Shown: positions 421-47,166, numbered from the stretch's first letter. The stretch is DNA of 64,000 nucleotides from Algoriphagus sp. (GCA_029945945.1 JAQSDM010000001.1:25705-89704), one strand, 5' to 3'. The notes: generated by a model from the letters alone, not told the origin. A program made the numbers and translations.

Positions 421-3400
421 ATGCTGCTCAGTAAACTGGAGATCAAGGGGTTCAAGAGTTTTGGCGACAAGATGGTCATCCATTTTGACAAAGGAATCAC
501 GGGTGTGGTCGGTCCAAATGGTTGCGGCAAATCCAATGTCGTCGATGCAATCCGATGGGTGCTCGGTGAGCAAAAGACCCGTATGCTCCGATCCGACAAG
601 ATGGAGAATGTGATCTTCAACGGAACCAAAAACCGTAAACCGGTCAATCTTGCGGAGGTTTCACTCACTTTTGAAAATACCAAAAACCTCCTCCCTACTG
701 AATACACGCACGTCACGATCACCCGGCGATACTACCGAACCGGCGAAAGTGAATACCAAATAAACGGCGTCACCTGCCGCCTGAAGGACATCACAAACCT
801 CTTCATGGATACGGGGATCAACTCGAACAGCTATGCGATCATCGAGTTGAAGATGATCGACGAGTTGCTCAATGATAAGAATAACTCCCGAAGAGAGCTT
901 TTCGAGGAAGCTGCAGGGATCTCCAAATTCAAAAACCGGAAGCGGGAAACCCTGCGGAAACTGGAAGATACAGACGGGGATTTATCACGTGTGGAAGACT
1001 TGCTTTTTGAGATCGACAAGAACCTGAAAAGCCTCGAAAAGCAGGCAAAGCAAGCTTCCAGATACTTTGAAATCAAAGCCGAATATCGGGTGGCCTCGAT
1101 CAATCTGGCGAAGAAAAGCATCGAGAAATACACCAAATCCCTGGTGGAAACGCATCGAAAAATCCAGGAGGAAAGCGACCGGAAACTTCAATACCAAACT
1201 CAGATCGCAGATTCCGAAGCACTGTTGAGTCAGTTGAAGGCAGATCTCATTCTGAAGGAAAAATTGCTCGCCAGCCGTCAAAAAACACTGAACGAACACG
1301 TCAATAAAATCCGTCAATTCGAATCGGAAAAGAAGATCAAATACGAGCGATTGAAATTCCTTGAGGAGCGTTCGCAGAAGCTCCGTGAGCAGATCGATTC
1401 GGACCGAAAGTCAAATGATCGGGCGGGATTCAGCATTCGCTCTCTTCAGCAGGAGAAAGAATCAGCCGAGAAAATGCTCGCCGAAAAGGAATTGATCGTA
1501 TCTGAATTGAGGGAAGCCTATGATTCTCAAAAGCTCATTCAAACCGAAAAGCAACAATCCCAGAAGGAGCTCAGCCAAAGTTTTGAGAAGCTGAAGGAGA
1601 AAGTCTATCAGCTGACCAAGGAAGTTGAGATCAAGCAAATCCAGCTTTCCACGCTGAAGCAGGAACTCGAGCGAACTTCCAGCGATGATTCCAATCAGGA
1701 AGCAAGTTTGGTGGATTTCGAAGAAAAACTGATCGAACTCCGGGCCGAACTCGAAGTCTCCAACAAGACCTATGCTGACCTTAAACTCAAGCAGGAAGAC
1801 CTGGATCAGAAGATCGAGGACACCAACCGGGTGATCGAAATGATCCGCGAGGAACTCACCCAATCTTCCCGTAAACTCGATTCCAAAACCAACGAATACA
1901 ACCTCACCAAATCCCTGGTGGAGAATCTGGAAGGCTTCCCGGAAGCGATCAAATTCCTGAAGAAAAACACCTCCTGGGGCAAGGATATTCCGCTCCTCTC
2001 CGACCTCCTGACCACGGATGAGAAATACCGGGTCACGATCGAAAACTACCTCGAGGCCTACATGAATTACTATGTGGTCGATACCGAATCTCAGGCGATT
2101 GCTGCGATTCAATTGCTGAGTGATACCGCCCGCGGAAAGGCAAATTTCTTCGTGTTGGAGCATTTTGAGCGGTTCAAACCGAGTCAAAGCAAGCTATTCG
2201 CCAACGCAATTGCAGCGACAGAAATCATCGAATTCGATCTCAAATACAGCCGTCTGATCAATTTCATCCTGGACAATGCCTACATCGTGCAGGGCGAACT
2301 CAATCATTTTCCGCAGGATCCTGACGCGATTTTCATCTCCGAAAACGGCAAATACACCAAGCGCAAATTCAGCCTTTCGGGTGGTTCTGTAGGTCTTTTC
2401 GAAGGAAAAAGAATCGGTCGGGCCAAGAACCTGGAGAAACTGGACAAGGACATCAAAGAGCTTCAGAAGAAAGTCAGCACCACCCGATCCAACCTGGATC
2501 AGAAGCTTTCTGACCTGATGAAGCTGAAGGAAGTCAACTACAAGAAGACGCTGGAGGATTGGCAAAATAAGATCAGCGAACTCAATCAGAATTTTGTCTC
2601 TGTCCGTACCAAAAAGGAACAATTGGCCGAATTGCTCAGCAGCAACGCCAATAAGCGGGAAGATATTCTGGACCGGATTTCAAATCTGGAGGAAAGTTTG
2701 ACCGAGATTCAGCCACAACTTTTTGCAGAAAAAGCAGAATTCCAATCCGCCCACGAAGACCTCGAATCGCTGACAGAATTACTGGAAAAAGAATCTACCC
2801 GACTGGCCGAAAAGTCCCAGGCGTTCAACGCCGAAAACATCCAATACCATCAGCAACTCAACCGGGTTGGCAGTTTGGATCAGGAAATTGAATTCAAACA
2901 AAGTGCCTACGAAGGCTCCAAAGAGCGGATCGAAAAGTCACAGTCTGAGCTTTCGCAGCTGGATGGAGAGATCAAATCGCTGCTTGAAAACAACGAAGTG
3001 AAGGACGACGAGCTGATCGAACTCTATTCCGAAAAAGAAGGAATCGAAGGCGGGGTGCAGGAAGCCGAACGCGATTATTACGGTTCGCGCGGGCTGATCG
3101 ACGAGACCGATCAGAAGATCCGCAGCATTCAGAAGGTGAAGGAAATCCACGATCAGCTTTTGCAGGAACTCCAAAACGGCATCAATGAGATCAAACTCAA
3201 AATGACCGGAATGAAGGAGCGACTCAGCGTTGAGTTTGAGCTGGACCTGGATCAGTTGATGGAGGAAAATCCTGAACTGGATGCAGATTTCAGGGATTTT
3301 GCAGAGAATCAGTTGCGCGAATTGGTCAGCAAGCAAAAAGAAAAACTCGAGAAAATCGGTCCGATCAACCCGATGGCCATGGAAGCGTATGACGAAATCA

Positions 3401-3960
3401 AAGTTCGCTATGACTTCATCACCAGCCAAAAAGAAGACCTGATCAAAGCCAAAGAATCGCTCCTCTCCACGATCAAAGAAATCGATCAGGTTGCAAAAGA
3501 CACCTTCCTCGATGCCTTTGGGAAAATCAAAGAAAACTTCATCAAGGTGTTCCGGTCCCTCTTTACCGAGCAGGATGACTGCGACCTGATCCTGATCGAT
3601 CCGGAAAATCCGCTGGAATCGCCGATCGAGATCATCGCCAAGCCCAAGGGCAAGCGACCGCTAACCATCAATCAACTTTCCGGAGGGGAGAAGACGCTGA
3701 CCGCCACTTCCCTCCTCTTTTCGATCTACCTGCTGAAGCCTGCGCCCTTCTGTATTTTCGACGAAGTGGACGCACCGCTTGACGATGCGAACATTGACAA
3801 GTTCAACCAGATCATCCAGAAGTTTAGCAAAGAGAGCCAGTTTATCATCGTCACCCACAACAAGCGCACGATGGCCAGCACTGATATTATCTACGGCATC
3901 ACGATGATCGAAGCGGGAGTTTCGAGAGTGGTTCCGGTGGATTTGAGGGAGTTGGCGTAG
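421..3960 (+). CDS. smc: chromosome segregation protein SMC
   Basis: 1179-aa ORF. It has an N-terminal Walker A (GPNGCGKSNVVDAIRWVLGEQ), a long E/K/L/Q-rich coiled-coil with a central hinge, a C-terminal signature LSGGEKTLTA and a Walker B FCIFDEVDAPLD. Confidence 0.95.
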   Translation: MLLSKLEIKGFKSFGDKMVIHFDKGITGVVGPNGCGKSNVVDAIRWVLGEQKTRMLRSDKMENVIFNGTKNRKPVNLAEVSLTFENTKNLLPTEYTHVTITRRYYRTGESEYQINGVTCRLKDITNLFMDTGINSNSYAIIELKMIDELLNDKNNSRRELFEEAAGISKFKNRKRETLRKLEDTDGDLSRVEDLLFEIDKNLKSLEKQAKQASRYFEIKAEYRVASINLAKKSIEKYTKSLVETHRKIQEESDRKLQYQTQIADSEALLSQLKADLILKEKLLASRQKTLNEHVNKIRQFESEKKIKYERLKFLEERSQKLREQIDSDRKSNDRAGFSIRSLQQEKESAEKMLAEKELIVSELREAYDSQKLIQTEKQQSQKELSQSFEKLKEKVYQLTKEVEIKQIQLSTLKQELERTSSDDSNQEASLVDFEEKLIELRAELEVSNKTYADLKLKQEDLDQKIEDTNRVIEMIREELTQSSRKLDSKTNEYNLTKSLVENLEGFPEAIKFLKKNTSWGKDIPLLSDLLTTDEKYRVTIENYLEAYMNYYVVDTESQAIAAIQLLSDTARGKANFFVLEHFERFKPSQSKLFANAIAATEIIEFDLKYSRLINFILDNAYIVQGELNHFPQDPDAIFISENGKYTKRKFSLSGGSVGLFEGKRIGRAKNLEKLDKDIKELQKKVSTTRSNLDQKLSDLMKLKEVNYKKTLEDWQNKISELNQNFVSVRTKKEQLAELLSSNANKREDILDRISNLEESLTEIQPQLFAEKAEFQSAHEDLESLTELLEKESTRLAEKSQAFNAENIQYHQQLNRVGSLDQEIEFKQSAYEGSKERIEKSQSELSQLDGEIKSLLENNEVKDDELIELYSEKEGIEGGVQEAERDYYGSRGLIDETDQKIRSIQKVKEIHDQLLQELQNGINEIKLKMTGMKERLSVEFELDLDQLMEENPELDADFRDFAENQLRELVSKQKEKLEKIGPINPMAMEAYDEIKVRYDFITSQKEDLIKAKESLLSTIKEIDQVAKDTFLDAFGKIKENFIKVFRSLFTEQDDCDLILIDPENPLESPIEIIAKPKGKRPLTINQLSGGEKTLTATSLLFSIYLLKPAPFCIFDEVDAPLDDANIDKFNQIIQKFSKESQFIIVTHNKRTMASTDIIYGITMIEAGVSRVVPVDLRELA

Positions 3961-3962
3961 GC

Positions 3963-3994
3963 GTCATTGCGAGGAGCGAAACGACGAAGCAATC
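3963..3994 (+). repeat. short palindromic-ended unit gtcattgcgagg-N10-cgaagcaatc (copy 1)
   Basis: It begins 3 nt after the smc stop. The ends attgc/gcaat are complementary, and the same ends recur at 4035-4097. Confidence 0.7.
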
Positions 3995-3997
3995 TGT

Positions 3998-4030
3998 TTA
4001 GGGATTAGAGAATAGGGATTAGGGATTAGG
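3998..4030 (+). repeat. degenerate heptamer tract (GGGATTA / GAGAATA)
   Basis: Reads tta-gggatta-gagaata-gggatta-gggatta-gg and lies between the two gtcattgcgagg units. Confidence 0.75.
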
Positions 4031-4034
4031 ACAC

Positions 4035-4097
4035 GTCATTGCGAGGGTTTTTACAAAGACTTAGGTGATCAAAATCATTCAAACCCGAAGCAATCTT
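4035..4097 (+). repeat. same unit with a different, longer interior (copy 2)
   Basis: Sequence gtcattgcgagg-gtttttacaaagacttaggtgatcaaaatcattcaaac-ccgaagcaatc. The interior adds its own gggttt/aaaccc pairing. Confidence 0.7.
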
Positions 4098-4103
4098 ATT
4101 CAT

Positions 4104-4232
4104 TTGAAACAAATCCCCCCATCAACACCCCCTGTTTTTGGCTACAGATTTTTGATCGATTGACGGGCAGACGGCCAAAAACCAAAATCGTTTTTCCAAA
4201 TCTGACCCCCGGTTAAAACCGGGGGCTACCAA
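4104..4232 (+). repeat. module A of the intergenic repeat family (diverged copy A1)
   Basis: Box aaatccccccatcaacaccccctg, then stem gtttttggc (4134-4142) / gccaaaaac (4174-4182), then hairpin cccccgg-ttaaaa-ccggggg (4206-4225), then ggctacc. It is collinear with copies at 9024, 13861 and 14247. Confidence 0.7.
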
Positions 4233-4339
4233 CCAAATGTCCCGATGGGACAACTATCGGCCAGAGATCGTTCCATGGGAACGATTGATTGGTAGAACAA
4301 ATAGAATCAATTTGGAGAAGGTTCGTTCCGTAGGAACGA
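4226..4339 (+). repeat. cluster of short GC-closed hairpins with an enclosing 7-bp helix
   Basis: Hairpins are gtccc-gat-gggac (4239-4251), atcgttcc-atg-ggaacgat (4267-4285) and tcgttcc-gta-ggaacga (4323-4339). The first two are enclosed by ctaccaa (4226-4232) / ttggtag (4289-4295). Confidence 0.6.
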
Positions 4340-4548
4340 TTGGTGGAAAATTCAATCTTGATAAAATCTCAAATTTTATTAAAAAGTGAAAAAGCCTTTA
4401 GCATCATTCATTCCACTCCATTCTTCCTTGAATATTGACCAGGCAGGAGCGACCAACCCTACCATTTTATGCATCCTTTTTTGGGTATTGCTGGATTTTC
4501 AATGAATTATTCAGGAAATTATAGTGAGGTAACCAAACGATCCCGGCC

Positions 4549-4842
4549 ATGATACCCAATCACAACCCCTACAGAGCTTCCATTTTAGAAACAATCCATT
4601 CCTTGTCGACTATGGAAGCGGAGGTGATATCCAAAACCCTCAGCATATTAATGGCAGGGGAATGGAAAGAAATGCATGAGACCTTTGAGGAAGGAAAGAA
4701 ATTTGGGTTTACCCTAACCCAATTGGGAACCTCAACGGATCAGAATGTGGTATCTATGGTCAAACTCATCAAGAATCTGAGAAAAACGATCAACAAGCTC
4801 CAAACCCAAAACAATATCCCGGATGAAGAAGTGGAGTTTTGA
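4549..4842 (+). CDS. hypothetical protein (97 aa)
   Basis: It is the only long ORF in this gap, with no recognisable motif. It sits directly downstream of the repeat-rich region 3961-4400. Confidence 0.4.
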   Translation: MIPNHNPYRASILETIHSLSTMEAEVISKTLSILMAGEWKEMHETFEEGKKFGFTLTQLGTSTDQNVVSMVKLIKNLRKTINKLQTQNNIPDEEVEF

Positions 4843-4973: not shown

Positions 4974-6494
4974 ATGCGTACACTTTTCCCTGCCGTTATC
5001 TTTTTTGTTTTGCTCCTCACAGGTTGCGAAAAATCAAGTGAAACTTCCACTCTCCTGGATGCCGATACCCAAGCTTGGTGGGTAACCACCACCGAACTTT
5101 CCAGCGATGAAATGGAGGGCCGGGATACGGGTTCTCCAGGCTATGCCCGTGCTGCGGATGTGGTTGCGAAGCGATTCGCTGCCGCAGGGCTTCAACCCTT
5201 GGGTGACCAGGGCAGCTGGTTTCAGGATGTAGCGATGGAGGAAACGGAAATTACCCAGGCATCGATCACTGTAGGCGGTCGTGAGTTGAGGTTTCTGCAT
5301 GATTTTTATGCCTCTCCGGGAAGCGTGACTGAGTCAATCGAAGCGCCAATTGTTTACTGTGGCTATTGCGACTCTACTTCCATCACCAAGGTAAAGGACA
5401 AGTTGGTGATCTGCCACGGCACTCGACGAGAAGGCCTACCCGCTGATGCCGATCGGGTAAAAATCCTTACTGAAGCCGGTGCGTTGGGAATGATCCTTAT
5501 TGCAGATCCAGGTTTTACGGTTGAGCCCCCACGATGGCCTTTTGCTTATAGCCGAAGCGTGCGGCTGGTCGGTTCTACCTCTACTGCACCTGCTCTCCTT
5601 AATTTCAGACTCAATGCGGATGCATTGACCAAAGTAATCGAAGGCAGTGGGCAAAACGCAAAAGAATTGATTGATTTGGGCAGTCAGGGAAAACCCCTTC
5701 CCTCATTTGAGCTCCCTGATTCGTTCAAGGCGAGTTTCACCACCTCTCAGCGGACTTTAAATTCCCCAAACATCCTTGGTCTCTTGCCGGGCACTGATCC
5801 AGCGCTGGCAGATCAGGCGATTGTGCTGACTGCCCACCTGGATGGCTATGGGTATGGTGAACCGGTGGATGGGGACAGTTTGTATAACGGCACTTTGGAT
5901 GATGCGGCTTATGTGGCACTTTTGATCCAATTGGCAGAAAGACTGGGTGGAACCGGATATAAAAGGCCTTTGATTTTTGCGATAGTGACAGGTGAAGAGA
6001 AAGGATTGCTGGGTACTCGGCATCTCATCCAAAATCTTCCTGTTCCTCTGGAAACCATCGCAGCCAATATCAACCTGGATCAACTCCGTCCGCTGTTTCC
6101 ACTCGAGTTGCTTACTGTTCATGCCCTTGATGAAACTACGCTTGGGGATGACGCAGCTTCCGTGGCAGCGAGTATGCAGATTAAAGTTCAGAATGACCCC
6201 GAACCAGAACGAGGACTAATCCGACGCTCAGACCATTGGGTTTTTATTCAGGCAGGGATTCCGGCCATCAATTTTGTCTTTGGTTTTGAGCCGGGCAGTG
6301 AGAGCGAACGAATCTACCGGGAGTGGTACCGTGTAGGGTATCACACGCCCAAGGATGATCTCGTGCAAAAAATGGACTGGGTTGCAGCAGCCAAGTTCAA
6401 CCAGTTTTTTTACGGATTGGTAGAAAAGGTTGCCGATGGAGCAGAAGCACCGGCATGGAAACCCGAAAGCAAGTTGAAGCCTGAAAAACCTTAG
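4974..6494 (+). CDS. M28 family metallopeptidase (aminopeptidase with PA-like insert), lipoprotein
   Basis: Signal peptide with lipobox LLLTGC. M28 metal-ligand blocks TAHLDGYGYG, DDAAYVALLIQLAE, VTGEEKGLLGTRH and DHWVF are present. I prefer ATG 4974 over the TTG at 4965 listed in the track. Confidence 0.85.
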   Translation: MRTLFPAVIFFVLLLTGCEKSSETSTLLDADTQAWWVTTTELSSDEMEGRDTGSPGYARAADVVAKRFAAAGLQPLGDQGSWFQDVAMEETEITQASITVGGRELRFLHDFYASPGSVTESIEAPIVYCGYCDSTSITKVKDKLVICHGTRREGLPADADRVKILTEAGALGMILIADPGFTVEPPRWPFAYSRSVRLVGSTSTAPALLNFRLNADALTKVIEGSGQNAKELIDLGSQGKPLPSFELPDSFKASFTTSQRTLNSPNILGLLPGTDPALADQAIVLTAHLDGYGYGEPVDGDSLYNGTLDDAAYVALLIQLAERLGGTGYKRPLIFAIVTGEEKGLLGTRHLIQNLPVPLETIAANINLDQLRPLFPLELLTVHALDETTLGDDAASVAASMQIKVQNDPEPERGLIRRSDHWVFIQAGIPAINFVFGFEPGSESERIYREWYRVGYHTPKDDLVQKMDWVAAAKFNQFFYGLVEKVADGAEAPAWKPESKLKPEKP

Positions 6495-6661: not shown

Positions 6662-6704
6662 AAAAAAAGCCCGTCAGGTAAAATCTAACGGGCTTTTCTG
6701 TTTT
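6662..6704. terminator. bidirectional intrinsic terminator (M28 / S9 peptidase genes)
   Basis: aaaaaaa-agcccgt-N13-acgggct-tttctgtttt. It lies between convergent genes. Confidence 0.7.
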
Positions 6705-8928: not shown

Positions 8929-9023
8929 GGTTGATGGTTTGGTCGAAACAAGTTAAGGTAATTTTGAAATAATAGTCTATAAGACTCCCTACCAAGGTCT
9001 TTGTCTCAAAGACCTTTCATTTT

Positions 9024-9330
9024 TTAAAAAATTCCACCCTGAAAACCACCGTTTTTTGGCGATAGATTTTGGATAGATTCACTTGGTGACGGCCAAAAAA
9101 CCGAAGTCATAATCTGTCATTTTTATCTCCAGGCCAGATATATTGCCGACGAAGACCGAGCTTCCATGGGACATTTCTCGGCAGGATCATTCAGCTACCA
9201 GAATTATTGTTGTGGAACGGCGGGGGGTCTGCCGCAGCAGCGAGGGGGCGTGAGCCTTGTGCGGCGGGAGCTTTGCTGCGGATTGAATTTTTGGTTCTTT
9301 TGGTTCAAGCCAAAAGAACAAAGAAAAAAA
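9024..9330 (+). repeat. full composite A+B intergenic element (copy AB-1)
   Basis: It is collinear with 13861-14186 over its whole length. Stems are gttttttggc (9051-9060) / gccaaaaaac (9092-9101), ccgcagca (9232-9239) / tgctgcgg (9274-9281), and gttcttttgg-ttcaag-ccaaaagaac (9294-9319). Confidence 0.8.
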
Positions 9331-9382
9331 CCTTTTCATCAAGGTCGATGCCCGAAAGACTATCTGTGTAACTCAGGGCCTC

Positions 9383-9402
9383 CTCGGTGTAACTCTGTGT
9401 CA
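9383..9402 (+). repeat. module C tail motif ctcggtgtaactctgtgtca
   Basis: It recurs as ctcggtgcaactccgtgtca at 16857-16876 and, degraded, as gtgaaactctgtgcca at 14433-14448. Confidence 0.6.
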
Positions 9403-9423
9403 ATTTGAATAAGCTCTAAACGG

Positions 9424-9873
9424 CTAATTTTTCCTAACCATCTCGATATGTTCGATCCCGTCCTCGTCGTACGTATCTCCATCAGCGACAAAACCCAAAG
9501 AAGCATAAAAACCCAGCGCGTAGGTTTGCGCTCCGATCCGAATATCCCCTGCTCCATAAAGTTGCTGACAATAGTCAATGGATAATTCCATCAGGATTTT
9601 CCCAAACCCTTTTCTTCTTGCCGAAGGCGAAGTAATCACTCGCCCAATGGACATTTCGGGATAGGATAAACCTGCGGGAACTAGCCTGCTGTAGCCTACC
9701 AGTTGATCATATGAGTAGAGCATGAGATGGTAGCACTTTTGATCCTTATCGTCCTGATCCAGGAAGACACAGTTTTGCTCCACGACAAACACCTCACTCC
9801 TCAATTTCAACACCTCATACAACTCATATACAGTAAGTTGGTCGAAAGCCTTGATCGTATGTGTCAGATTCAT
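9424..9873 (-). CDS. GNAT family N-acetyltransferase (ElaA-like)
   Basis: 149 aa. It shows the ElaA-type N-terminus (FDQLTVYELYEVLKLRSEVFVVEQNC) and the acetyl-CoA loop ARRKGFGKILM. Confidence 0.8.
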   Translation of the reverse strand: MNLTHTIKAFDQLTVYELYEVLKLRSEVFVVEQNCVFLDQDDKDQKCYHLMLYSYDQLVGYSRLVPAGLSYPEMSIGRVITSPSARRKGFGKILMELSIDYCQQLYGAGDIRIGAQTYALGFYASLGFVADGDTYDEDGIEHIEMVRKN

Positions 9874-10016
9874 GGGAATTGTATTAGAAGCAGGGTGGAT
9901 GGATTGCGCGATTGAGATTCAAATATGCCTGAGATTCCCTGGTTGTCCAAGTAGCCGATCTGATTTTTACAAGACCGGAAGTCTTCTTACAGGTACAATT
10001 GTCGGGACAGGCCCAA

Positions 10017-10050
10017 AGCAAAAATGATCCGATGTGACGGATCATTTTTT
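10017..10050 (-). terminator. intrinsic terminator after the desaturase gene
   Basis: An 11-bp stem aaaatgatccg / cggatcatttt with a 6-nt loop, flanked by A and T runs. Confidence 0.5.
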
Positions 10051-10115
10051 ACACATTTTTGAAAAGTTGGACAGCTTCACCGTCTAAATTCTCCTGTTCT
10101 AACAAACAAAATCCC

Positions 10116-11195
10116 TTAGGCTTGACCTAACTGGCGAAGCATTTTCACATGATCAGAAAGTGCCTTCATAAATGTTGTTTTTACCAAATAGGGAACTTCA
10201 AATTCCTGAGCCGTCTCCGACACGATCCTTGATAAGTTTTTGTAATGAATATGACAGATGTTTGGAAATAAATGATGCTCTACCTGAAAATTCAACCCTC
10301 CGATAAGCCAGGAAAATACACTGCTTTTTGGTGAATAATTACTGGTGGTGGCCAACTGATGGGCTATCCATTCATTTGAAATCACGCCTTTATCATCAGG
10401 CAGTGGAAAGGTAGTGTCTGAAAGGATATGTGCCGTCTGGAAGACCAAACTGATGCAGATTCCTGTCACAAAATGCATGGACAAAAATGCCAATATGATA
10501 ATATAGGCAGGTAGTGGTACCATTATCAACGGCAACACCAAGGCATAGGAATAATAGAAGACTTTCCAGCTGGCAATTTTCAACAGTTCTATTCTAAAAT
10601 CGCTGCCACTTTTATACAATCCCATGTTGTTGTACCGATTGGCTCTCACAAAATCCTTGGAAGTGATCCAGGAAATAGTCGAAAGTCCATAAAAAAACCA
10701 GATGTAGAGGTATTGAAAACGATGGATCCAATAGCGCTTGGCATTTGGAGAAAAGCGCAGGAAAAAGGGTGCATTGATATCATCATCCCCATGATCAATA
10801 TTGGTATAGGTATGGTGAAGCACGTTGTGTTGGATTCTCCATACACCGGCATTGGCACCAATAAGATTCATGGTGTAACCCAAGTATTTGTTGACGACCG
10901 GATTTTTGGAATAGGATCCGTGTATCGCATCATGCATCACTCCCATTCCGACGCCTGCCATGCCCAAGCCACTGAGGATATACAGCATAAATAGCAGCCA
11001 AACACTTGTGACAATTCCCGAGCTGATTGTAATCAACGGAATTAAGAAAATGGAAAGCATAACAATGGTTTTAACTACCATCTTTCGGCCACCATGCCTG
11101 CTTTGATTGGTCTTTTTAAAGTAATCATTGACCCTGGAATGCAGGGTATTGGAAAATTCAGAAGCACCTGACTTATCGAATTTTATACTTTTCAT
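10116..11195 (-). CDS. membrane fatty-acid desaturase (acyl-lipid/acyl-CoA type)
   Basis: 359 aa with several TM segments and three His boxes: HDAIHGS, HNVLHH and QVEHHLFP. Confidence 0.85.
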   Translation of the reverse strand: MKSIKFDKSGASEFSNTLHSRVNDYFKKTNQSRHGGRKMVVKTIVMLSIFLIPLITISSGIVTSVWLLFMLYILSGLGMAGVGMGVMHDAIHGSYSKNPVVNKYLGYTMNLIGANAGVWRIQHNVLHHTYTNIDHGDDDINAPFFLRFSPNAKRYWIHRFQYLYIWFFYGLSTISWITSKDFVRANRYNNMGLYKSGSDFRIELLKIASWKVFYYSYALVLPLIMVPLPAYIIILAFLSMHFVTGICISLVFQTAHILSDTTFPLPDDKGVISNEWIAHQLATTSNYSPKSSVFSWLIGGLNFQVEHHLFPNICHIHYKNLSRIVSETAQEFEVPYLVKTTFMKALSDHVKMLRQLGQA

Positions 11196-11269
11196 TTATG
11201 CATTGGTTAAAGCTCATGGAGTGCTATCCTCTTAAAGTATAGCGGGTTTCAAAGCAGTTTTCTATTCTT

Positions 11270-11455
11270 TCAATACGTTTGCAATTCGGCAAAAATCAAA
11301 TCCAATTCTGGTCGGGTCTTTTCCAGTTTGATAGAAAGGTTCTCCATCATCTTTTCTCTTTGACCTTCCTGGTATTCAAAATCCAAATCCAGTAAAATTG
11401 AGAATCGTCGTTTAAGCATCACTTTCTGCTCTCTCCAACTCCGTAGAATATCCAT
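11270..11455 (-). CDS. CsbD-like small stress protein
   Basis: 61 aa. The pattern W-EQK--LK--F--L-D-D--Y-EG----M--L---L-KT--EL matches the short CsbD-family proteins of Bacteroidota as I remember them. Confidence 0.5.
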   Translation of the reverse strand: MDILRSWREQKVMLKRRFSILLDLDFEYQEGQREKMMENLSIKLEKTRPELDLIFAELQTY

Positions 11456-11980
11456 GGTTTGTTTGTTAAGGGTGAATAGCTGTATTAGCCTTTTTGTTGG
11501 GTGAATCAGTTTTTACTCGGGTAATCAATCTTCTCTCTTTTGAATATCCCCGGCTCTGGCTTTTCCGGATAATCAGCAAACTTTTACCGGCAGATTTCAG
11601 GGTACTGTTTCCTGACTATCAACTGAAATTGGGGTCAACCTCAGACGAAATTGGTTCTTAAGCCATGAATCTGGAATATTCCGGGGTTCACAGGTTTTTT
11701 ACTTAACCGCTTACATCCAACTATTTTTGGGCATAAGGATGATTGCGATTGGATACTGTACAATGCCGAAAGATGATTGGGATGGATTGAAGCAATTCAG
11801 GTCCTGAAACGGATTCTGCAAATTGGTGATAAACGGACTTCTGATTCTCCTTTCTAAAGTTGGGTATAATTCAGCACATATGTGTTACATCATTCCATTG
11901 GATACTTACATAAATCCTATTTTAAGGTTTGAATTGGGGTATTTAACAACTAATAACATTTAGATTTTGGGTAATAGGTG

Positions 11981-12541
11981 CTATAAACTTTCCAAGGTTA
12001 GCTTTCTCTTATCCATCAGTTTTTTATAAAAAGAGGGTGTCAAACCGGTGATTTTTTTGAACTGATTGGACAGATGCGCCACACTGCTGTAGTGGAGCTT
12101 GCTGGAAATCTCTGTCAGGTTTAATTCATCATGACTCATTAGTTCTTTGACGCGTTCTATCTTATGATTAATGATAAACTGTTGGATGGTAATTCCTTTA
12201 ACCTCAGAAAAAATATTGGCGAGGTAGGCATAAACATAGCCCAATTTTCCACAGATAAATTCAGAGTAATTTACTGTTGGAAGCTCATCAGAATAATGGA
12301 CCATTTCGATAATGATATTTTTGATCTTCTCTATCAGGATACTTTTCTTATCCTCCATAAGTTCTAAACCGGAATTTTGGAGGTTTGTTTTGAGAACCAT
12401 CCTTTGCTCCAAACTTAAATCTCCCACTAGTTCAACCATCCCCAAATCCACGATCATCCATTGAATTCCGAGTTTTTGAAGTTCATCCTCGACCCTCATC
12501 TTACATCGCAAGCTTATCCTGTTTTTTATATAGAGCTTCAT
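11981..12541 (-). CDS. AraC family transcriptional regulator
   Basis: C-terminal AraC-type HTH (LTEISSKLHYSSVAHLSNQFKKITGLTPSFYKK). I prefer the internal ATG at 12541 (MKLYIKNRISLRC...) over the track start at 12616. Confidence 0.8.
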   Translation of the reverse strand: MKLYIKNRISLRCKMRVEDELQKLGIQWMIVDLGMVELVGDLSLEQRMVLKTNLQNSGLELMEDKKSILIEKIKNIIIEMVHYSDELPTVNYSEFICGKLGYVYAYLANIFSEVKGITIQQFIINHKIERVKELMSHDELNLTEISSKLHYSSVAHLSNQFKKITGLTPSFYKKLMDKRKLTLESL

Positions 12542-12934
12542 TGGGATGAATTTATTTAGCTTGAAAGCAAAAGAGTCTCGTGATTTGAAAACAGTTTTAC
12601 AAAAAAATAAATTCATACTATTTTGGTTTTCAGATTATTCCAATGACCGAATCAGTACTTTGAAGAAGTAATACAAATCTTGGATCCTGGTCCAGGCACT
12701 TGCCTCATCCAATTCTGTTCATTTGGTATTCCCGTTTTCAAGTGTGAAAATCCGGGTTTTGAAATCACTCTGTTTCTTCCGGATTCTCACGCTTCAATTC
12801 TCTCCTCCCGTAAGATTTGATCTTCTGAAAAGAGATGCGTTACTTCAGCTTTCAGGCTGTCCCGGAACTGGTCCTCTTCTCCTGGAAGAATCTGATATCT
12901 CCGAATTATCCCGATCAACTCAAGACCAGATCCC

Positions 12935-13813
12935 ATGAAACTTAACCTCCTTTTGATTGCGCTCTTTTTTGCAGTTTCGGAAGCTTTTGCAGAAATCAGA
13001 AAAGAACCTGATCAAAATCCTTTTACCCCAATTCCTGCCAACCCGGACTCTATGACTGCTAAAAAAAATGTATGGGTTTTTATTCTTGCCGGCCAATCCA
13101 ACATGGCCGGAAGAGGAATTGTAGAAGCAGAAGATACGATTCCAAATGAGCGTGTCTTGACTATCAACCAGGAAGGGGAAATAATTCCTGCCCGGGAGCC
13201 GCTGCACTGGTATGAACCTCTGCTTACAGGTTTGGACTGTGGGTTGTCGTTTGGAAAAACCCTGGCCCCTCACCTTCCTGACTCTGTTACCATTTTAATC
13301 CTTCCAACAGCAGTAGGCGGAAGCTCGATCTCTCAGTGGATCGGGGATTCAACGTACCGAAATATCACCTTGCTTTCAAATTTTAAAGAGAAAGTAGCCT
13401 TGGGAAAAGCAAATGGGACGATCAAGGGGATCCTTTGGCATCAGGGAGAAAGTGATACCGGTTCTGAGGAGTTGATTGAATTGTATCAGGAAAGGCTCAA
13501 AACCTTGTTTCTAAAATTCAGAACAGAAATCGGAAATGATTCGCTGCCTGTTTTGATCGGAGAACTCGGTTCCTTCTCTGCCAATGATACAAATTGGCAA
13601 GCCATCAACAGACAAATCAGGGCTTATGTGGCCACCGATCCCCACGCTGCCATCATTCAAACCAGTGACTTCACCCACAAAGGAGATTTTATACATTTCA
13701 ATTCAGAAGGACAGCGGACCATGGGCGAACGGTTTGCGCTTAAGTTTCTTGAAATAAGTCATTCCGAGGGTTCAAAGGGATTGGAGATTAGGGATTGGGA
13801 GAATAGAGATTAG
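12935..13813 (+). CDS. SGNH/DUF303 carbohydrate esterase (sialate O-acetylesterase-like)
   Basis: Signal peptide, then VFILAGQSNMAGRG and GILWHQGESD blocks. The last ~12 codons (GLEIRDWENRD) are encoded by the heptamer repeat tract. Confidence 0.8.
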   Translation: MKLNLLLIALFFAVSEAFAEIRKEPDQNPFTPIPANPDSMTAKKNVWVFILAGQSNMAGRGIVEAEDTIPNERVLTINQEGEIIPAREPLHWYEPLLTGLDCGLSFGKTLAPHLPDSVTILILPTAVGGSSISQWIGDSTYRNITLLSNFKEKVALGKANGTIKGILWHQGESDTGSEELIELYQERLKTLFLKFRTEIGNDSLPVLIGELGSFSANDTNWQAINRQIRAYVATDPHAAIIQTSDFTHKGDFIHFNSEGQRTMGERFALKFLEISHSEGSKGLEIRDWENRD

Positions 13814-13848
13814 GGATTAAGAGATTAGGGATTAGGAGATAGGAGAAT
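13777..13848 (+). repeat. degenerate heptamer tract (GGGATTR / GAGATTA / GAGAATA), about 10 units
   Basis: Reads gggattg gagatta gggattg ggagaat agagatt agggatt aagagat tagggat taggaga taggaga. It overlaps the last 37 nt of the esterase CDS. Confidence 0.8.
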
Positions 13849-13860
13849 CTATTTCAGTAT

Positions 13861-14186
13861 TTGAAAATAAAATCCCTCCATCCACACCCCCTGTTTTTGG
13901 CGACAGATTATGGATCGATTTACATGGTGACGGCCGAAAACCGGAATCATAATCCGCATTTTCATCCAGGGTTTGTCCCGATAGCTAACAGGACAACCCC
14001 TGGCTACCCAAAGGATGTTCTTAGCAGGACATTTACCGGCGGAATCATTCAGCTACCATAATTATTCTTGTGGAATGGCGGGCGGGCTGCCGCAGCAGCG
14101 AGGGTGGGCGGGGATTGTGCAGGGGAAGCTTTGCTGCGGCTTGAATTTTTGGTTCTTTTGGTTCAAGCCAAAAGAACATAAAAAAG
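13861..14186 (+). repeat. full composite A+B intergenic element (copy AB-2)
   Basis: Stems are gtttttggc (13893-13901) / gccgaaaac (13933-13941, with one G-U), a long hairpin at 13966-14003, gccgcagca (14089-14097) / tgctgcggc (14132-14140), and gttcttttgg-ttcaag-ccaaaagaac (14152-14177). Confidence 0.8.
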
Positions 14187-14246
14187 AAAAATCGATCTAT
14201 TAAGATCGTTCTGGAAATTCGACAGGAAGTAGAACCAATTCAATTT

Positions 14247-14395
14247 TTGAAGATAAAATCCCTCCATCCACACCCCCTGTTTTTGGCGAAAGATTATGGA
14301 TCGATTGACATGGTGACTGCCAATAACCGGAATCATAATCCGCATTTTCATCCAGGGGTTGTCCCGATTGCTAACGGGACCCCTGGCTATTACAA
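14247..14395 (+). repeat. module A only (copy A4), tandem to AB-2
   Basis: By eye it is roughly 90% identical to 13861-14005. Its stems are at 14279-14287 / 14319-14327 and its hairpin at 14352-14386. Confidence 0.8.
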
Positions 14396-14521
14396 AGCTC
14401 TTCTACTGAGCTTTACCTTACTTTATCTCTAAGTGAAACTCTGTGCCATCCTGCCCGGAGCAGGCAGGTCTATTTAAACTTTGTTTCATTTTTTTTAACC
14501 AATCCCCCATCCCTTTTTCTT

Positions 14522-16507
14522 CTATTTAGTCCACTCATTATCTGCTACATTTTTGTCCGGGAATCGACCGTGAGGATCAAGGGTTATCTTCTTGATTTTA
14601 CGGGAACCAAAGTTCAGCACCGCATCAAAAGTCCGATTCCCCTCAAACCAAACTGTAACAGGCCATGTAACTTCTACGGTCAAAGGATCTATCATTTTAG
14701 CATTTGACATTGGATTAATGGCCGGTCCTTCCGCTTCAAATTCCACTTTCAATACGACCGGAGAAGGCATTTCTCCAGCCTGCTTTACAGTGACAGTTGT
14801 ATGATCGTTTTCGGTTTTAACATCTTGAATAGAACCTTCGACAGATTCAGTAGTGAACAACCAATAATTCCAGAACCACTCCAGATTTTGTCCCAACTCA
14901 TTGTTCATAAAGAACATGTAATCCCATGGCGAAGGATGTTTGTAGGCCCAAGTGGTGGTGTACTTTTTCATCGCGTTGATCACCGCTTCATCCCCTACTA
15001 TTCCACCCAACATGGAGAGCATCAAGGGTGTCTTCTGGTAGGTTTGAAATCCATAGCCGCTCCCAGCATCGTTGGCACTCCACATCAAAGGTGCCTCATC
15101 TTCACTTCCGCTGATCCGACCGTAACTTTGTCCCAGTCCATCCAGGTTGTAAGGCTTGCCTGCAGCATCTGCATCAGACAGGATATTCATGTATTGATTG
15201 AATCCTTCATCCATCCAGCCGTATCGGGTTTCATTTGTTCCCAACACCATTGGCCACCATTGATGCGCTGTTTCATGATCGGCAGCTCCCTGATTGGAAT
15301 TGATGACCATTGGATACTCCATTCCGGCACTTGGACCGTCTTGCAGGGTAAGTTGGGGAAATGGATAAGGTGCCCAAAGTTTGGAATAATACTCCAAAGC
15401 ATGTCTTGTGATCTTGCCTGCGTTTTCAAAATACCTGGCTCGCTCAGGAAGGAAGACCATGTGAATGGGAACAGGTCCTTTGCCAGGAATAGTGGCACGA
15501 GTCGCTTTCCAGATAAAAGAGTCCGAGGTGGCCCAGGCAAAATCGTTTACTTTATCAGCTAAAAAGCGCCAGGTTAGCTTCTCTCCTGCTTCTGTTGCTT
15601 TGCCTGCCCCTAGTTCATCAGCTCCGACGATCGTCACTTCGGCATCAGAGTCTAAAACAGTGGAGAGGCGCTGAATAGCTGTTGGGGTTAAGACTTCCTT
15701 GGGATTTTGTAACGCGCCCGTTCCGCTTACGATCCAACCGGCTGGAACCGTGATCGAAACATCAAAACGACCGAAGTTATTGTAGAATTCGGATGGGCCG
15801 AGATAAGGACTGGTCTCCCAGCCTCTTAAGTCATCATACTTAGCCAATCGTGGGTACCATTGTGTAGGCTGGAATAGTCTGCTGTCAAAACGTTGGGTCA
15901 TTCGATGTCCTCTTCCGTTTTCGCCTCCCGGCAATTTGGTATTCCAGGATATTTCCAATTCCGCAGTTGTTCCTGCTTTGATGGGTTGAGCTAAAAAAAT
16001 GGTGGCAACTGTTCTGTTCAACCCAGTAGCACGAAGTGCTGCCGGAGCATTCCTTCCCATGAGAGGCGCGTTGAGATCAACTGTTTCACCAGCAACTTTG
16101 ATCCCTGTGACGATCATCCCATCGGTCTGCTCGGCAGGAGTAGATGCCCCTCGTGGGACATCCGCCCGGAAAATATTGTGATCCAGACGAAGGATGATTC
16201 GATCCAAATCATCCTTGGAATTGTTGTGAACAAGTATTTTTTCAGTTCCAGTGATAGTTTGAGTGGTTGGATCCAGGCTGGCATTGATGGTGTAATCGGT
16301 TTCCAATTGCCAGTAATTGGGTCCCGGCTTGCCTGAGAAATCACGGGTTCCCGCTTCATAAGCCCTACGGATGGAATTTGTCAATGGGATATCCTGCCGG
16401 ATTGCGCGCTCGTTCGTTTCGATAGATGAGCGTTGAGGTTTGGGAAAGTTATCCTGGCCAAAAGCGATCGAGGTGGTCAAGAGGAATAAAAAGAGTACAA
16501 TTCGCAT
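14522..16507 (-). CDS. M1 family metallopeptidase (aminopeptidase N-like)
   Basis: 661 aa with a signal peptide. It carries GMEYP, the zinc motif HETAHQWW and the downstream WMDEGFNQY (HExxH-x18-E). Confidence 0.9.
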   Translation of the reverse strand: MRIVLFLFLLTTSIAFGQDNFPKPQRSSIETNERAIRQDIPLTNSIRRAYEAGTRDFSGKPGPNYWQLETDYTINASLDPTTQTITGTEKILVHNNSKDDLDRIILRLDHNIFRADVPRGASTPAEQTDGMIVTGIKVAGETVDLNAPLMGRNAPAALRATGLNRTVATIFLAQPIKAGTTAELEISWNTKLPGGENGRGHRMTQRFDSRLFQPTQWYPRLAKYDDLRGWETSPYLGPSEFYNNFGRFDVSITVPAGWIVSGTGALQNPKEVLTPTAIQRLSTVLDSDAEVTIVGADELGAGKATEAGEKLTWRFLADKVNDFAWATSDSFIWKATRATIPGKGPVPIHMVFLPERARYFENAGKITRHALEYYSKLWAPYPFPQLTLQDGPSAGMEYPMVINSNQGAADHETAHQWWPMVLGTNETRYGWMDEGFNQYMNILSDADAAGKPYNLDGLGQSYGRISGSEDEAPLMWSANDAGSGYGFQTYQKTPLMLSMLGGIVGDEAVINAMKKYTTTWAYKHPSPWDYMFFMNNELGQNLEWFWNYWLFTTESVEGSIQDVKTENDHTTVTVKQAGEMPSPVVLKVEFEAEGPAINPMSNAKMIDPLTVEVTWPVTVWFEGNRTFDAVLNFGSRKIKKITLDPHGRFPDKNVADNEWTK

Positions 16508-16640
16508 AAGCTTCGATGGTTTTATAATCAGTTTTAAAACTTAGTAAAATATCCGATCATTAACATCAAGAATGGAGATGAATGGGAATTGTTTTTAATG
16601 GGCCGAGAAATCAGACGCAGGGGAAGATTTGCTATTTCTT

Positions 16641-16812
16641 GAATCATTGTAGTGGAACGGCGGGGGGCTGCAGCGAAAGCGCGAGGGCCTGGTGAGGTCG
16701 GAGCTTGGTTGCGGGTTGGACATGCCCGCAACCCGGCTCTTCACTAAAACAACCCACCAGGTTGTTTCTTGATGCTCAGCCCTCCTTTTGGTTCAAGCAA
16801 AAAGAAAAAAAG
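16641..16812 (+). repeat. module B, diverged copy (B3)
   Basis: It shares gaatcatt...gtggaacggcggggggctg...gcgaggg and ...ttttggttcaagcaaaaagaaaaaaag with B1 and B2. Its interior is replaced by a GC-rich hairpin, ggttgcggg (16707-16715) / cccgcaacc (16725-16733). Confidence 0.65.
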
Positions 16813-16845
16813 TCCCTTTTCCCAAAGGTATTTACCACAAATAAT

Positions 16846-16876
16846 CTCGGTGCCTTCTCGGTGCAACTCCGTGTCA
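16846..16876 (+). repeat. module C tail motif (with internal ctcggtgc duplication)
   Basis: Reads ctcggtgcc-tt-ctcggtgcaactccgtgtca and is followed by ttttttttaac, as at 14476-14490. Confidence 0.6.
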
Positions 16877-16904
16877 TTTTTTTTAACTCACCTTCAAAAC
16901 CCAT

Positions 16905-16934
16905 TAAAAAAGGTGGTCCGTTGCCAGACCACCT
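16905..16934 (-). terminator. intrinsic terminator of katG
   Basis: On the minus strand, aggtggtc-N8-gaccacct is followed by TTTTTT. Confidence 0.75.
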
Positions 16935-16963
16935 TAATACTTTTCTTAGATTTTACTTTGAAA

Positions 16964-19894: not shown

Positions 19895-19930
19895 AAAAAA
19901 ATAAACCCGTATCCTGACAGGATACGGGTT
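19895..19930 (-). terminator. intrinsic terminator of the SDR gene
   Basis: A 12-bp stem acccgtatcctg / caggatacgggt is followed on the minus strand by a T run. Confidence 0.75.
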
Positions 19931-19937
19931 TCGGAAT

Positions 19938-35572: not shown

Positions 35573-35619
35573 CCAAAACGAGAAAGCACCGGCATAAAAC
35601 CGGTGCTTTCTCGTTTTGG
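35573..35619. terminator. 20-bp perfect inverted repeat between convergent genes
   Basis: ccaaaacgagaaagcaccgg-cataaaa-ccggtgctttctcgttttgg. No clean U tract is present on either side. Confidence 0.55.
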
Positions 35620-47122: not shown

Positions 47123-47166
47123 AAACAAAAAGGGCTTTGAGATTACTCAAAGCCCTTTTTTATTTT
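47121..47166. terminator. bidirectional terminator (oxidoreductase / OmpA-family genes)
   Basis: agggctttgag-atta-ctcaaagccct, flanked by an A run and a T run. Confidence 0.75.

Follow-up and report, generated by a model that had tools for sequence, protein, structure and literature searches.

Repeat modules between smc and katG

We analyzed a 64,000-nucleotide stretch of an Algoriphagus sp. genome (GCA_029945945.1, JAQSDM010000001.1:25705-89704; hereafter ‘the window’) that contains a family of hairpin-bearing intergenic repeats, of which the element at 13861-14186 is the focal copy. Two proteins encoded in the window are identical to proteins labelled by their sources as coming from an Algoriphagus sp. 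metagenome-assembled genome. The genes flanking these repeats lie on both strands and are of unrelated, housekeeping type – smc, an M28 peptidase, an S9 peptidase, a GNAT acetyltransferase, a fatty-acid desaturase, an AraC regulator, a SASA esterase, an M1 peptidase, and katG. Repeat finding, self-BLAST, and nhmmer profile searches located four A, three B, and two to three C modules, all on the plus strand and all confined to 4.1-16.9 kb; the other 47 kb (17-64 kb) contain no copy. A first-pass annotation, made from the sequence alone, had listed two full-length copies, two A-only copies, and one diverged B copy in a single orientation; self-BLAST and nhmmer bear out both the positions and the uniform orientation. 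The features are as follows.

3965..4045, plus strand: upstream repeat block, in which two ‘gtcattgcgagg’ motifs flank (TTAGGGA)x4.7; right behind the smc stop codon (3960)
4103..4275, plus strand: c4104 A module (to 4233) and A-B linker; nhmmer E 1e-32
9021..9164, plus strand: c9024 A module; hairpin P1 intact, hairpin P2 degenerate
9167..9334, plus strand: c9024 B module; GTGGAACGGCGGG box, GC stem, terminal hairpin
9357..9412, plus strand: C module after the c9024 B; E 2e-17; abuts the GNAT stop codon (9424)
13776..13848, plus strand: TTAGGGA/AGGGATT-type tandem repeat of ~8 copies, directly 5' of the focal A; overlaps the 3' end of the SASA esterase open reading frame (ORF)
13862..14007, plus strand: focal c13861 A module; C-rich leader, P1 with GATTTAC in the loop, long P2
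14025..14192, plus strand: focal c13861 B module; TGTGGAATGGCGGG box, GC stem, terminal hairpin, then an A-rich tail
14248..14421, plus strand: c14247 A module (14248-14389) and A3 hairpin (14390-14421), without B
14428..14497, plus strand: weak C-like module, tentative; E 0.09
16624..16813, plus strand: c16641 diverged B module; 56-nucleotide (nt) internal insertion, decayed terminal hairpin
16840..16886, plus strand: C module after the c16641 B; E 4e-12

Copy E-values range from 1e-9 to 1e-59 in self-BLAST and nhmmer, which excludes chance similarity. The two full copies, c9024 and c13861, share 75% identity across 324 nt, and in their B parts 86% across 162 ungapped nt; the tandem A copies starting at 13853 and 14239 (c13861 and c14247) are 91% identical. 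By locus, the modules combine as A+B+C, A+B, A+A3, and B+C. The two-module scheme of the first-pass annotation thus needs extension: A and B exist, but so do the further modules C and A3 and a TTAGGGA block upstream of two A copies. Likewise, its A-only copies do have A modules at 4104 and 14247, but the former shares the A-B linker to ~4275 and the latter carries A3. We also considered a third full-length copy, with a B-like stretch at 4235-4400 downstream of c4104, and rejected it: similarity to B is at background (z -0.3 and 0.6), and local alignment against shuffles supports the A-B linker alone (z=3.8).

The C module consists of two imperfect direct repeats of ~21 nt (ctctgtgtaactc...gtgtca and a T run) and is also found at L085 6641-6690 and in L103, two of the loci of relatives described below. 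The c4104 copy, which forms P1 at 4135-4142/4174-4181 and a short P2 at 4206-4212/4219-4225, has orthologues in L002 and L085. The block upstream of it (3965..4045) is kept in L002 and resembles 13788-13822. Telomere-like heptamer arrays (TTAGGGA/AGGGATT) were observed at 3998-4030 (4.7 copies) and 13776-13848 (~8 copies), as well as on the minus strand of L002 at ~4330-4370. Each array directly follows a gene stop codon and is preceded by a ‘gtcatt[gc]cgagg’ motif, and the second one overlaps the last codons of the SASA esterase ORF.

Conserved hairpins in non-coding DNA

Each module is organized around hairpins. Family-wide, P1 is an 8-bp inverted repeat, TTTTTGGC/GCCAAAAA, closing a loop of 31-36 nt that contains GATTGAC. 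In the focal A module, TTTTTGGC at 13894-13901 pairs with GCCGAAAA at 13933-13940 (8 bp, 31-nt loop), and the right arm opposite TTTTTGGC has the general form GCCRAAAA. The variable hairpin P2, formed in the focal copy by 13966-13971 and 13998-14003, differs in sequence by subfamily (CCCCCGG/CCGGGGG, CCAGGG/CCCTGG, and CCACAGG/CCTGTGG) and is broken in at least six copies, a visible decay. The long P2 of the 13861 type resembles a fold-back extension of the short 4104 type. Within the focal B module we identified a GC stem (GCCGCAGCA/TGCTGCGGC, 14089-14097 with 14132-14140) and a terminal hairpin (GGTTCTTTTGG-TTCAAG-CCAAAAGAAC, 14151-14177), both of which are intact in the two full copies only. 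All of the helices proposed in the first-pass annotation are present in the focal copy; the GC stem and terminal hairpin are degenerate in the 16641 copy. Stems with TTTTGG/CCAAAA are common to the hairpins of A and of the end of B, and the TGTGGAATGGCGGG box of the focal B module is complementary to the A leader.

Other potential structures were seen at these sites. At the end of B (14143-14167 and 9285-9309), the 9-mer TTTTGGTTC is tandemly duplicated, and a TTGAA/TTCAA hairpin (5 bp in the window, 7 bp in the viral contig L098) and a GGTTCTTTTGG/CCAAAAGAACC hairpin are mutually exclusive. Pairing of GATT in the P1 loop with AATC past P1, as a candidate pseudoknot or alternative helix, recurs among copies; as judged by eye, it spans 4-7 bp and is inconsistent from copy to copy.

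These hairpins were compared in an alignment of 20 A copies, drawn from at least six genomes, whose columns are on average 49% identical. P1 was paired in 95.6% of cells and was nearly invariant across the 20 copies, as was the loop motif GATTGAC. No covarying P1 pairs were found in 12 sequences, because an invariant stem allows no covariation to be seen. The invariance of P1 is thus silent on base pairing; it indicates a sequence-specific constraint on both arms. P2 was paired in 58% of cells and unpaired in 42%, with two pairs changed on both sides. The combined P1+P2 covariation score was 0.106, against 0.074 for shuffles (8 of 500 reach 0.106) and 0.087 when partners were slid by one column, a value within reach of unconstrained alignments. 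In A. antarcticus, the B terminal hairpin has two compensatory pairs (36 of 500 shuffles), and a hairpin at 4268-4290 carries a compensatory change between the window and L002.

Folding energies were compared with those of shuffled sequences. The full composite folds better than shuffles on the plus strand (z -3.3; -1.95 on the minus strand), whereas single modules mostly fold no better than shuffles (z -0.1 to -2.4) and their minimum-free-energy (MFE) structures differ between copies. The A module folds better on the minus strand in 20 of 20 copies and the B module on the plus strand in 6 of 6 – opposite preferences that follow the C-rich composition of A and the G-rich composition of B. We accordingly rejected folding energy as a guide to the strand of action, since it reflects base composition and points to different strands for the two modules.

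Several observations establish that the repeats are non-coding. Conserved blocks fall in differing reading frames with in-frame stops, and the two B copies mismatch at the three codon positions in the proportion 7:6:9, which rejects coding in B. We considered a minus-strand small protein across P1 (MKMRIMIPVFGRHHVNRS...; ..VFGR..VNR..RQKQ..) and discarded it, as its frame shifts between copies and contains stops and frameshifts: it is read differently in the N15 and N16 loop variants, has a stop in L094, and is frameshifted in c9024. This frame, the best candidate for a small ORF, does not encode a hydrophobic peptide, and no conserved small ORF was found in the repeats. The earlier statement that ORFs crossing the elements are not conserved as proteins is consistent with both the frame comparison and the mismatch spread. 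The earlier description of the elements as GC-rich is accurate in direction, but the enrichment is modest: the GC fraction is 0.42-0.47 in A and 0.51-0.55 in B, versus 0.42 for the window and 0.30-0.43 for other intergenic DNA.

We next looked at transcription signals. No Bacteroidetes promoter (TTTG-N17-23-TAnnTTTG) was found upstream of the copies except near 8959, no consistent -33/-7 promoter frames the copies, and no hairpin is trailed by a U-tract. A scan for sigma-70 promoters and terminators at the copies performed no better than on shuffles and was set aside. The sole good -7 box near a copy is TAATTTTG at 8959-8966 on the plus strand, with TTTG 17 nt upstream. A hairpin that resembles a terminator, with a T run, comes 35 nt after it (8994-9016, plus strand), and both lie just upstream of c9024 and divergent from the S9 peptidase start.

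Rfam 15 gave no match in the window at gathering scores, and at E<=10 it returned miRNA/sRNA noise alone, below threshold, on both the 13-kb region and a 650-nt segment; the element had previously been left outside any RNA family, and these searches agree. Plasmid and phage collections contained no similar DNA. Neither a transposase, a recombinase, nor an integrase was detected by Pfam in 30 window ORFs or in the fetched loci of relatives, and the same scans revealed no Y1/HUH gene. The copies align solely as direct repeats, also when copies are compared with empty sites, and neither terminal inverted repeats nor a target-site duplication was found, in keeping with the first-pass annotation, which had noted the absence of both and of a transposase. 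The elements thus lack the paired features (terminal inverted repeats and target-site duplication) by which miniature inverted-repeat transposable elements and classical insertion sequences (IS) are recognized. A tRNA, a tmRNA, and an att site at a tRNA were looked for as candidates; none was found. What the elements do have are the features of a mosaic repeat: they are non-coding intergenic units with reusable modules in varied combinations, they form hairpins, and they vary between strains.

In viral sequences, the B terminal hairpin is the sole part of the repeat with real IMG/VR matches; the A1 pattern had none there. The hairpin, GGTTCTTTTGG-N6-CCAAAAGAAC, recurs intergenically in IMG/VR contigs L096, L097, L099, and L100 (4.7-7.9 kb). 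One of these, L097, is circular (55-nt terminal repeats), and the small contigs with the hairpin are putatively ssDNA-phage-like or microvirus-like, ssDNA standing for single-stranded DNA. In L098, positions 96-160 match the hairpin plus its flanks at ~92% identity over 50 nt. A viral origin was also considered and dismissed: a 16-mer from the B box gave 77 IMG/VR matches, all attributable to chance.

Distribution and gene-block turnover in Algoriphagus

Syntenic loci of relatives, fetched via neighbouring proteins, showed that the family is patchy across several Algoriphagus lineages and varies in copy number, position, and module combination. L002 (OW818636.1, a 92%-identical relative) has two A copies, L085 has four, L103 has two, and L107 has three together with one B-like copy, while the syntenic loci of L101, L104, L105, and L106 contain no family copies. 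Every A copy in the syntenic region is oriented as in the window; in A. antarcticus, a B-like copy is inverted relative to a weak A copy. Both L085 and L103 carry a tandem A-A3-C-A arrangement with the A pairs ~206 nt apart. The smc-downstream copy is positionally conserved in three lineages.

Beyond the syntenic loci, a strict A1 pattern had one match in 185,579 species genomes (one genome per species). This match is the orthologous smc-downstream copy of a 4.6-Mb relative, which argues that the family is not a dispersed high-copy repeat in that sister genome. A looser A1-core pattern identified at least three more members on metagenome contigs, and one member matching this pattern lies downstream of recA in another Algoriphagus, at an unlinked locus. 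L095, a gene-poor 4.4-kb metagenome contig, contains three tandem A-like units of 265-275 nt (2698-3500) and a dispersed fourth copy (743-880); each unit also holds the palindrome AGCGTAGAT-TGC-ATCTACGCT. A further motif that we call module D, ‘ctttgcgatcctt(g)gg.aactttgcggt’ with an A run, accompanies A copies at L085 10598-10640, L103 5127-5230, L107 8760-8840, and L092 10624-10759, and is tandemly duplicated downstream of recA in L092. In the related loci, the sole Rfam match is a group II intron domain V/VI (RF00029, 67 bits; L094 6611-6686, minus strand), which lies at a contig end ~550 nt from an A-like copy and is unrelated to the repeats.

The comparison of the window with L002 and L085 identified the smc-katG interval as a rearrangement hotspot. 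Relative to the window, L002 has lost the desaturase-AraC-SASA block and has a deletion of the S9 peptidase that left a 3' remnant, while L085 has extra alcohol dehydrogenase, hydrolase, and GT34 genes and a relocated M28 gene. The TTAGGGA repeats, A+B, and A of the window occupy the place of GT34 in L085. Similarly, the M1-katG spacer holds B+C in the window versus 64 unrelated nt in L085, which has no c16641-type copy there; the c16641 B variant recurs in L107. Copies of the repeat sit at many of the borders of strain-variable gene blocks between smc and katG, and close relatives differ in which copies they have gained, lost, truncated, or recombined. A 6.8-kb defence-like gene block in L107 has an A copy on either side, the two belonging to different subfamilies. 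This block (9304-15533, beside GNAT) has no counterpart in the window and contains candidate anti-phage defence genes, encoding a 568-aa TIR-like protein (PADLOC PDC-S60 match), a 657-aa nSTAND1+pYEATS NTPase, and an 834-aa protein of unknown function.

Two comparisons show insertion as such. The recA-permease spacer measures ~45 nt in relatives with 94-95% identical RecA versus ~700 nt in L092, where a mosaic insertion of ~650 nt holds an A1-like element and other repeats. The GNAT protein of the window, of L102, and of two relatives that have no copies (L101 and L104) terminates in EMVRK(G/N)*, whereas in L002, L085, and L103 the A3 hairpin replaces the GNAT stop codon, giving the ends KSSE*, KKL*, and KKH*, with a junction in TTTCC microhomology. 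We had considered that A copies carry duplicated GNAT 3' ends, as in a segmental duplication or an att core; this was rejected, as EMVRK(G/N)* is the ancestral end of GNAT and the shared sequence is A3, which derives from the element and was fused onto GNAT in three lineages.

In L085, three direct copies of the last ~116 nt of smc (2477-2592, 3675-3790, and 5567-5676) flank two inserted blocks, which contain small ORFs and an M28 peptidase 76% identical to that of the window. No integrase was found at these repeats. The arrangement looks like serial insertion at the smc 3' end, with each event carrying a replacement gene end.

Additional features of these loci were recorded. ORF97 (window 4549-4842, plus strand; L085 6010-6303 and 10001-10174) encodes a 97-aa helical protein and always adjoins an A copy. 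It has eight matches among 5.8 billion proteins, in close Algoriphagus relatives alone, and in L085 it has been duplicated together with A, with one ORF97 copy truncated. ORF97 was examined as a DNA-binding partner of the repeats and set aside: it has no Pfam, PHROG, or PDB fold match, and its model is a helical hairpin with a predicted local distance difference test (pLDDT) score of 67.7. In a Logan assembly of the same genome, one contig breaks off within A on one side and within the B terminal hairpin on the other. The window also has perfect or near-perfect intergenic palindromes that are unrelated to the repeat family (19903-19931, 35573-35619, 47121-47166, 6663-6699, and 16910-16935); those at 6663-6699 and 16910-16935 are classic bidirectional terminators with A and T runs, and the other three are probably likewise.

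A putative mosaic repeat and its alternatives

Our tentatively favoured reading is that the family is a non-autonomous, BOX/BIME-like mosaic intergenic repeat – modular, non-coding, hairpin-rich, and restricted to the genus Algoriphagus (Cyclobacteriaceae, Bacteroidota). The repeat family was previously uncatalogued. A literature search for intergenic repeats of this kind in Algoriphagus or Bacteroidetes returned none and, to our knowledge, mosaic intergenic repeats have not been described in Bacteroidota. In appearance, the elements are closer to selfish or recombination-prone DNA than to a conserved RNA gene.

In the model that we propose, a module set of leader-A1-A2-A3, linker, B, and C would be inserted or duplicated as units into spacers at gene ends and spread locally. 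Copies would accumulate side by side in one orientation, with modules being swapped, lost, or left to decay. Since direct copies are spaced by a few kb, they flag the turnover of gene blocks in the smc-katG interval and, through recombination, probably also promote it. The TTTTTGGC/GCCAAAAA arms and the loop motif are fixed while the rest of the element drifts, so this core is most likely a sequence-specific recognition site. We infer that the elements act at the DNA level: the invariant P1/GATTGAC core is predicted to be recognized, as a hairpin or as a duplex, by a protein encoded elsewhere that would drive propagation or recombination.

Several results weigh against this proposal. No trans-acting enzyme was identified; neither the window nor the fetched loci contain a transposase or recombinase, and our comparisons yielded no defined termini, target-site duplication, or target motif. 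BOX and BIME elements occur in many copies throughout the genome, whereas the present family appears to have few copies, which in the window are clustered within 13 kb. P2 pairs via differing sequences, and the two compensatory pairs in the A. antarcticus B terminal hairpin point the same way – behaviour that a functional RNA would share. Finally, the smc-downstream copy is more conserved between species than its surroundings.

Comparison with known systems clarifies which features are shared. Pneumococcal BOX elements are modular intergenic repeats (boxA-boxB-boxC) that are dispersed genome-wide in more than 100 copies. Like the BOX elements of Streptococcus pneumoniae, the Algoriphagus repeats are non-coding and intergenic, occur in full and partial module combinations, form hairpins, lack a transposase of their own, and vary between strains, and the function of BOX is likewise not agreed. 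Unlike BOX, to which they are unrelated in sequence, they appear low-copy, clustered within a few kb in one orientation, and sometimes tandem, and they have one invariant inverted-repeat core. The LDR and Sib/QUAD repeats of E. coli are type I toxin-antitoxin loci that were first noticed as intergenic direct repeats. They resemble the present family in being structured direct repeats (140-530 nt), tandem as well as dispersed, that are conserved at the nucleotide level, but the Algoriphagus repeats have no conserved small ORF, and their best minus-strand frame shifts, has stops, and is not hydrophobic. The palindrome-associated transposable elements (PATEs) derived from IS200/IS605 share the lack of terminal inverted repeats and target-site duplications and a non-autonomous nature, and may also share subterminal hairpins at each end and a single orientation, the latter as judged here at essentially one syntenic region; unlike for PATEs, no TnpA/TnpB relative, cleavage motif, or defined ends were found here, and module order is variable. 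Integron attC sites (e.g., the VCR of Vibrio cholerae) are likewise structured repeats, 60-150 nt long, whose conserved inverted boxes enclose a variable centre and which lie in one orientation between strain-variable genes. Here, however, there is neither an RYYYAAC/GTTRRRY core nor an IntI, the blocks are multi-gene and of mixed orientation, and tandem repeats occur with nothing between them. Enterobacterial bacterial interspersed mosaic elements (BIMEs) and repetitive extragenic palindromic (REP) sequences, the latter with their RAYT transposases (PMC2817692), are alike in being mosaics of short palindromic units and linkers, in occupying 3' intergenic spacers, and in having a conserved hairpin that is possibly recognized by a protein. 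REP sequences differ in their length (20-40 nt), their GTAG/CGTC head, their alternating orientation within BIMEs, and their hundreds of copies, whereas the units here span 130-330 nt, are all direct, and come with no GTAG head or RAYT gene that we could see.

A different explanation is that the repeats constitute a structured non-coding RNA (ncRNA) family, that is, paralogous small RNA genes or 3' untranslated-region or other cis-acting structures on one strand that were amplified by local duplication. The first-pass annotation had left the choice between such a family and a DNA-level repeat; a genuine repeat family with conserved hairpins is what we find, and the evidence, with a P1 that does not covary, leans towards DNA. 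Consistent with an RNA, the full composite beats shuffles on the plus strand (z -3.3), P2 and the B terminal hairpin keep pairing through different sequences across subfamilies and species, the A leader is complementary to the B box and could close the A+B unit, a compensatory change is seen in the 4268-4290 hairpin, and the smc-downstream copy has been held in position across three lineages. The P1+P2 covariation score exceeds that of 492 of 500 shuffles, but P1 never covaries, P2 is unpaired in 42% of cells, the slid control comes near (0.087 vs 0.106), and unconstrained alignments can reach the 8/500 level. The earlier annotation had held that a lack of supported covariation among many aligned copies would count against its proposal; at 20 copies the P1+P2 score is weakly above controls, which for an ncRNA comes close to that outcome. 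Single modules folding no better than shuffles, MFE structures that disagree among copies, and a composition-driven strand preference (A minus, 20/20; B plus, 6/6) that defines no common transcribed strand likewise argue against an RNA gene, as do the lack of an Rfam match, of a -33/-7 promoter upstream of any copy other than near 8959, and of U-tracts behind the hairpins, and the occurrence of copies that are truncated, fused to a gene end, or missing from many congeners. We therefore regard an ncRNA family as unlikely. A further alternative takes the repeats to be neutral remnants, with no function of their own, left in an unstable region by repeated segmental or tandem duplication and by illegitimate recombination, the hairpins being by-products of template switching at quasi-palindromes; this would account for the similarity that runs into the flanks (TTAGGGA block and A at 3998-4104 and at 13788-13861), the L085 ORF97 unit duplicated along with A, the long P2 resembling a fold-back of the short type, the many decayed copies, and the TTTCC microhomology at the GNAT junction. 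Against it, P1 and GATTGAC are invariant in copies that are otherwise ~50% identical, in several species and at unrelated loci (among them downstream of recA, L094, and L095), an invariance that would be lost under neutral decay, and an unrelated viral contig matches the B terminal hairpin at ~92% identity over 50 nt; such debris strikes us as a distinctly unlikely source.

The remaining possibilities invoke an enzyme encoded elsewhere in the genome. Mobilization of ssDNA by an HUH/Y1 enzyme, similar to that of PATEs or of REP sequences by RAYTs, would make A the left end and B the right end of an element, each with a subterminal hairpin, and would tie the strand of insertion to replication. 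Uniform orientation without terminal inverted repeats, target duplication, or transposase fits this scheme, as do the TTTTGG/CCAAAA stems shared by the A and B hairpins, an invariant stem and conserved loop motif of the kind expected of a protein-recognized ssDNA structure, the B terminal hairpin in small circular IMG/VR contigs (~7 kb) that are putatively ssDNA-phage-like, and solo A and solo B copies that could be single ends. In addition, the window has negative GC skew over its whole length, which places all copies in a single orientation with respect to one direction of replication. We nevertheless consider this mechanism very unlikely: none of the loci has a Y1/HUH gene, no conserved cleavage tetranucleotide or guide pairing could be defined, orientation is judged at essentially one syntenic region while the A. 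antarcticus B-like copy is inverted relative to a weak A, and recombination accounts equally well for the tandem A-A3-C-A arrays and mixed module orders. Another such scheme treats the A modules as integron-like or hotspot recombination sites with inverted core boxes and a variable centre. Its appeal is that subfamilies that are ~60-90% identical share the architecture and the inverted boxes TTTTTGGC/GCCAAAAA alone, in the manner of attC sites, that copies in one orientation lie 2-7 kb apart between strain-variable blocks (e.g., the L107 defence-like block), and that the three 116-nt smc-end copies of L085 flank inserted blocks, a signature of serial integration at a gene 3' end. The boxes, however, as read from the sequence, do not follow the RYYYAAC/GTTRRRY core consensus, no locus has an integrase, and block borders often lie away from A copies: the L002 S9 deletion leaves a remnant, and the M28 breakpoints are at that gene's own ends. 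With blocks that are multi-gene, of mixed orientation, and housekeeping-like, and tandem A copies that enclose nothing, integron-like sites are highly improbable. A broader version, which we consider a rather improbable one, would have the A module serve as a recombination or cleavage site, on folded ssDNA and akin to an attC or HUH substrate, for an undescribed Bacteroidota system whose enzyme lies elsewhere in the genome and which would insert and swap blocks of several genes, anti-phage defence genes among them, always in the same orientation behind smc and GNAT.

If the mosaic-repeat proposal is correct, the elements would represent a new repeat family for Bacteroidota and would explain why assemblies break at this locus, as in the Logan contig that ends within A and within the B terminal hairpin. 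It would also flag smc-katG as a hotspot of gene flux in Algoriphagus, with repeats edging strain-specific blocks that include a defence-like island. The invariant hairpin core provides a handle for finding the protein that propagates the repeats. Were that protein a recombinase or an HUH nuclease, the locus would be a new type of gene-capture platform; and if the elements are transcribed, they would be candidates for a new ncRNA family of the Cyclobacteriaceae.

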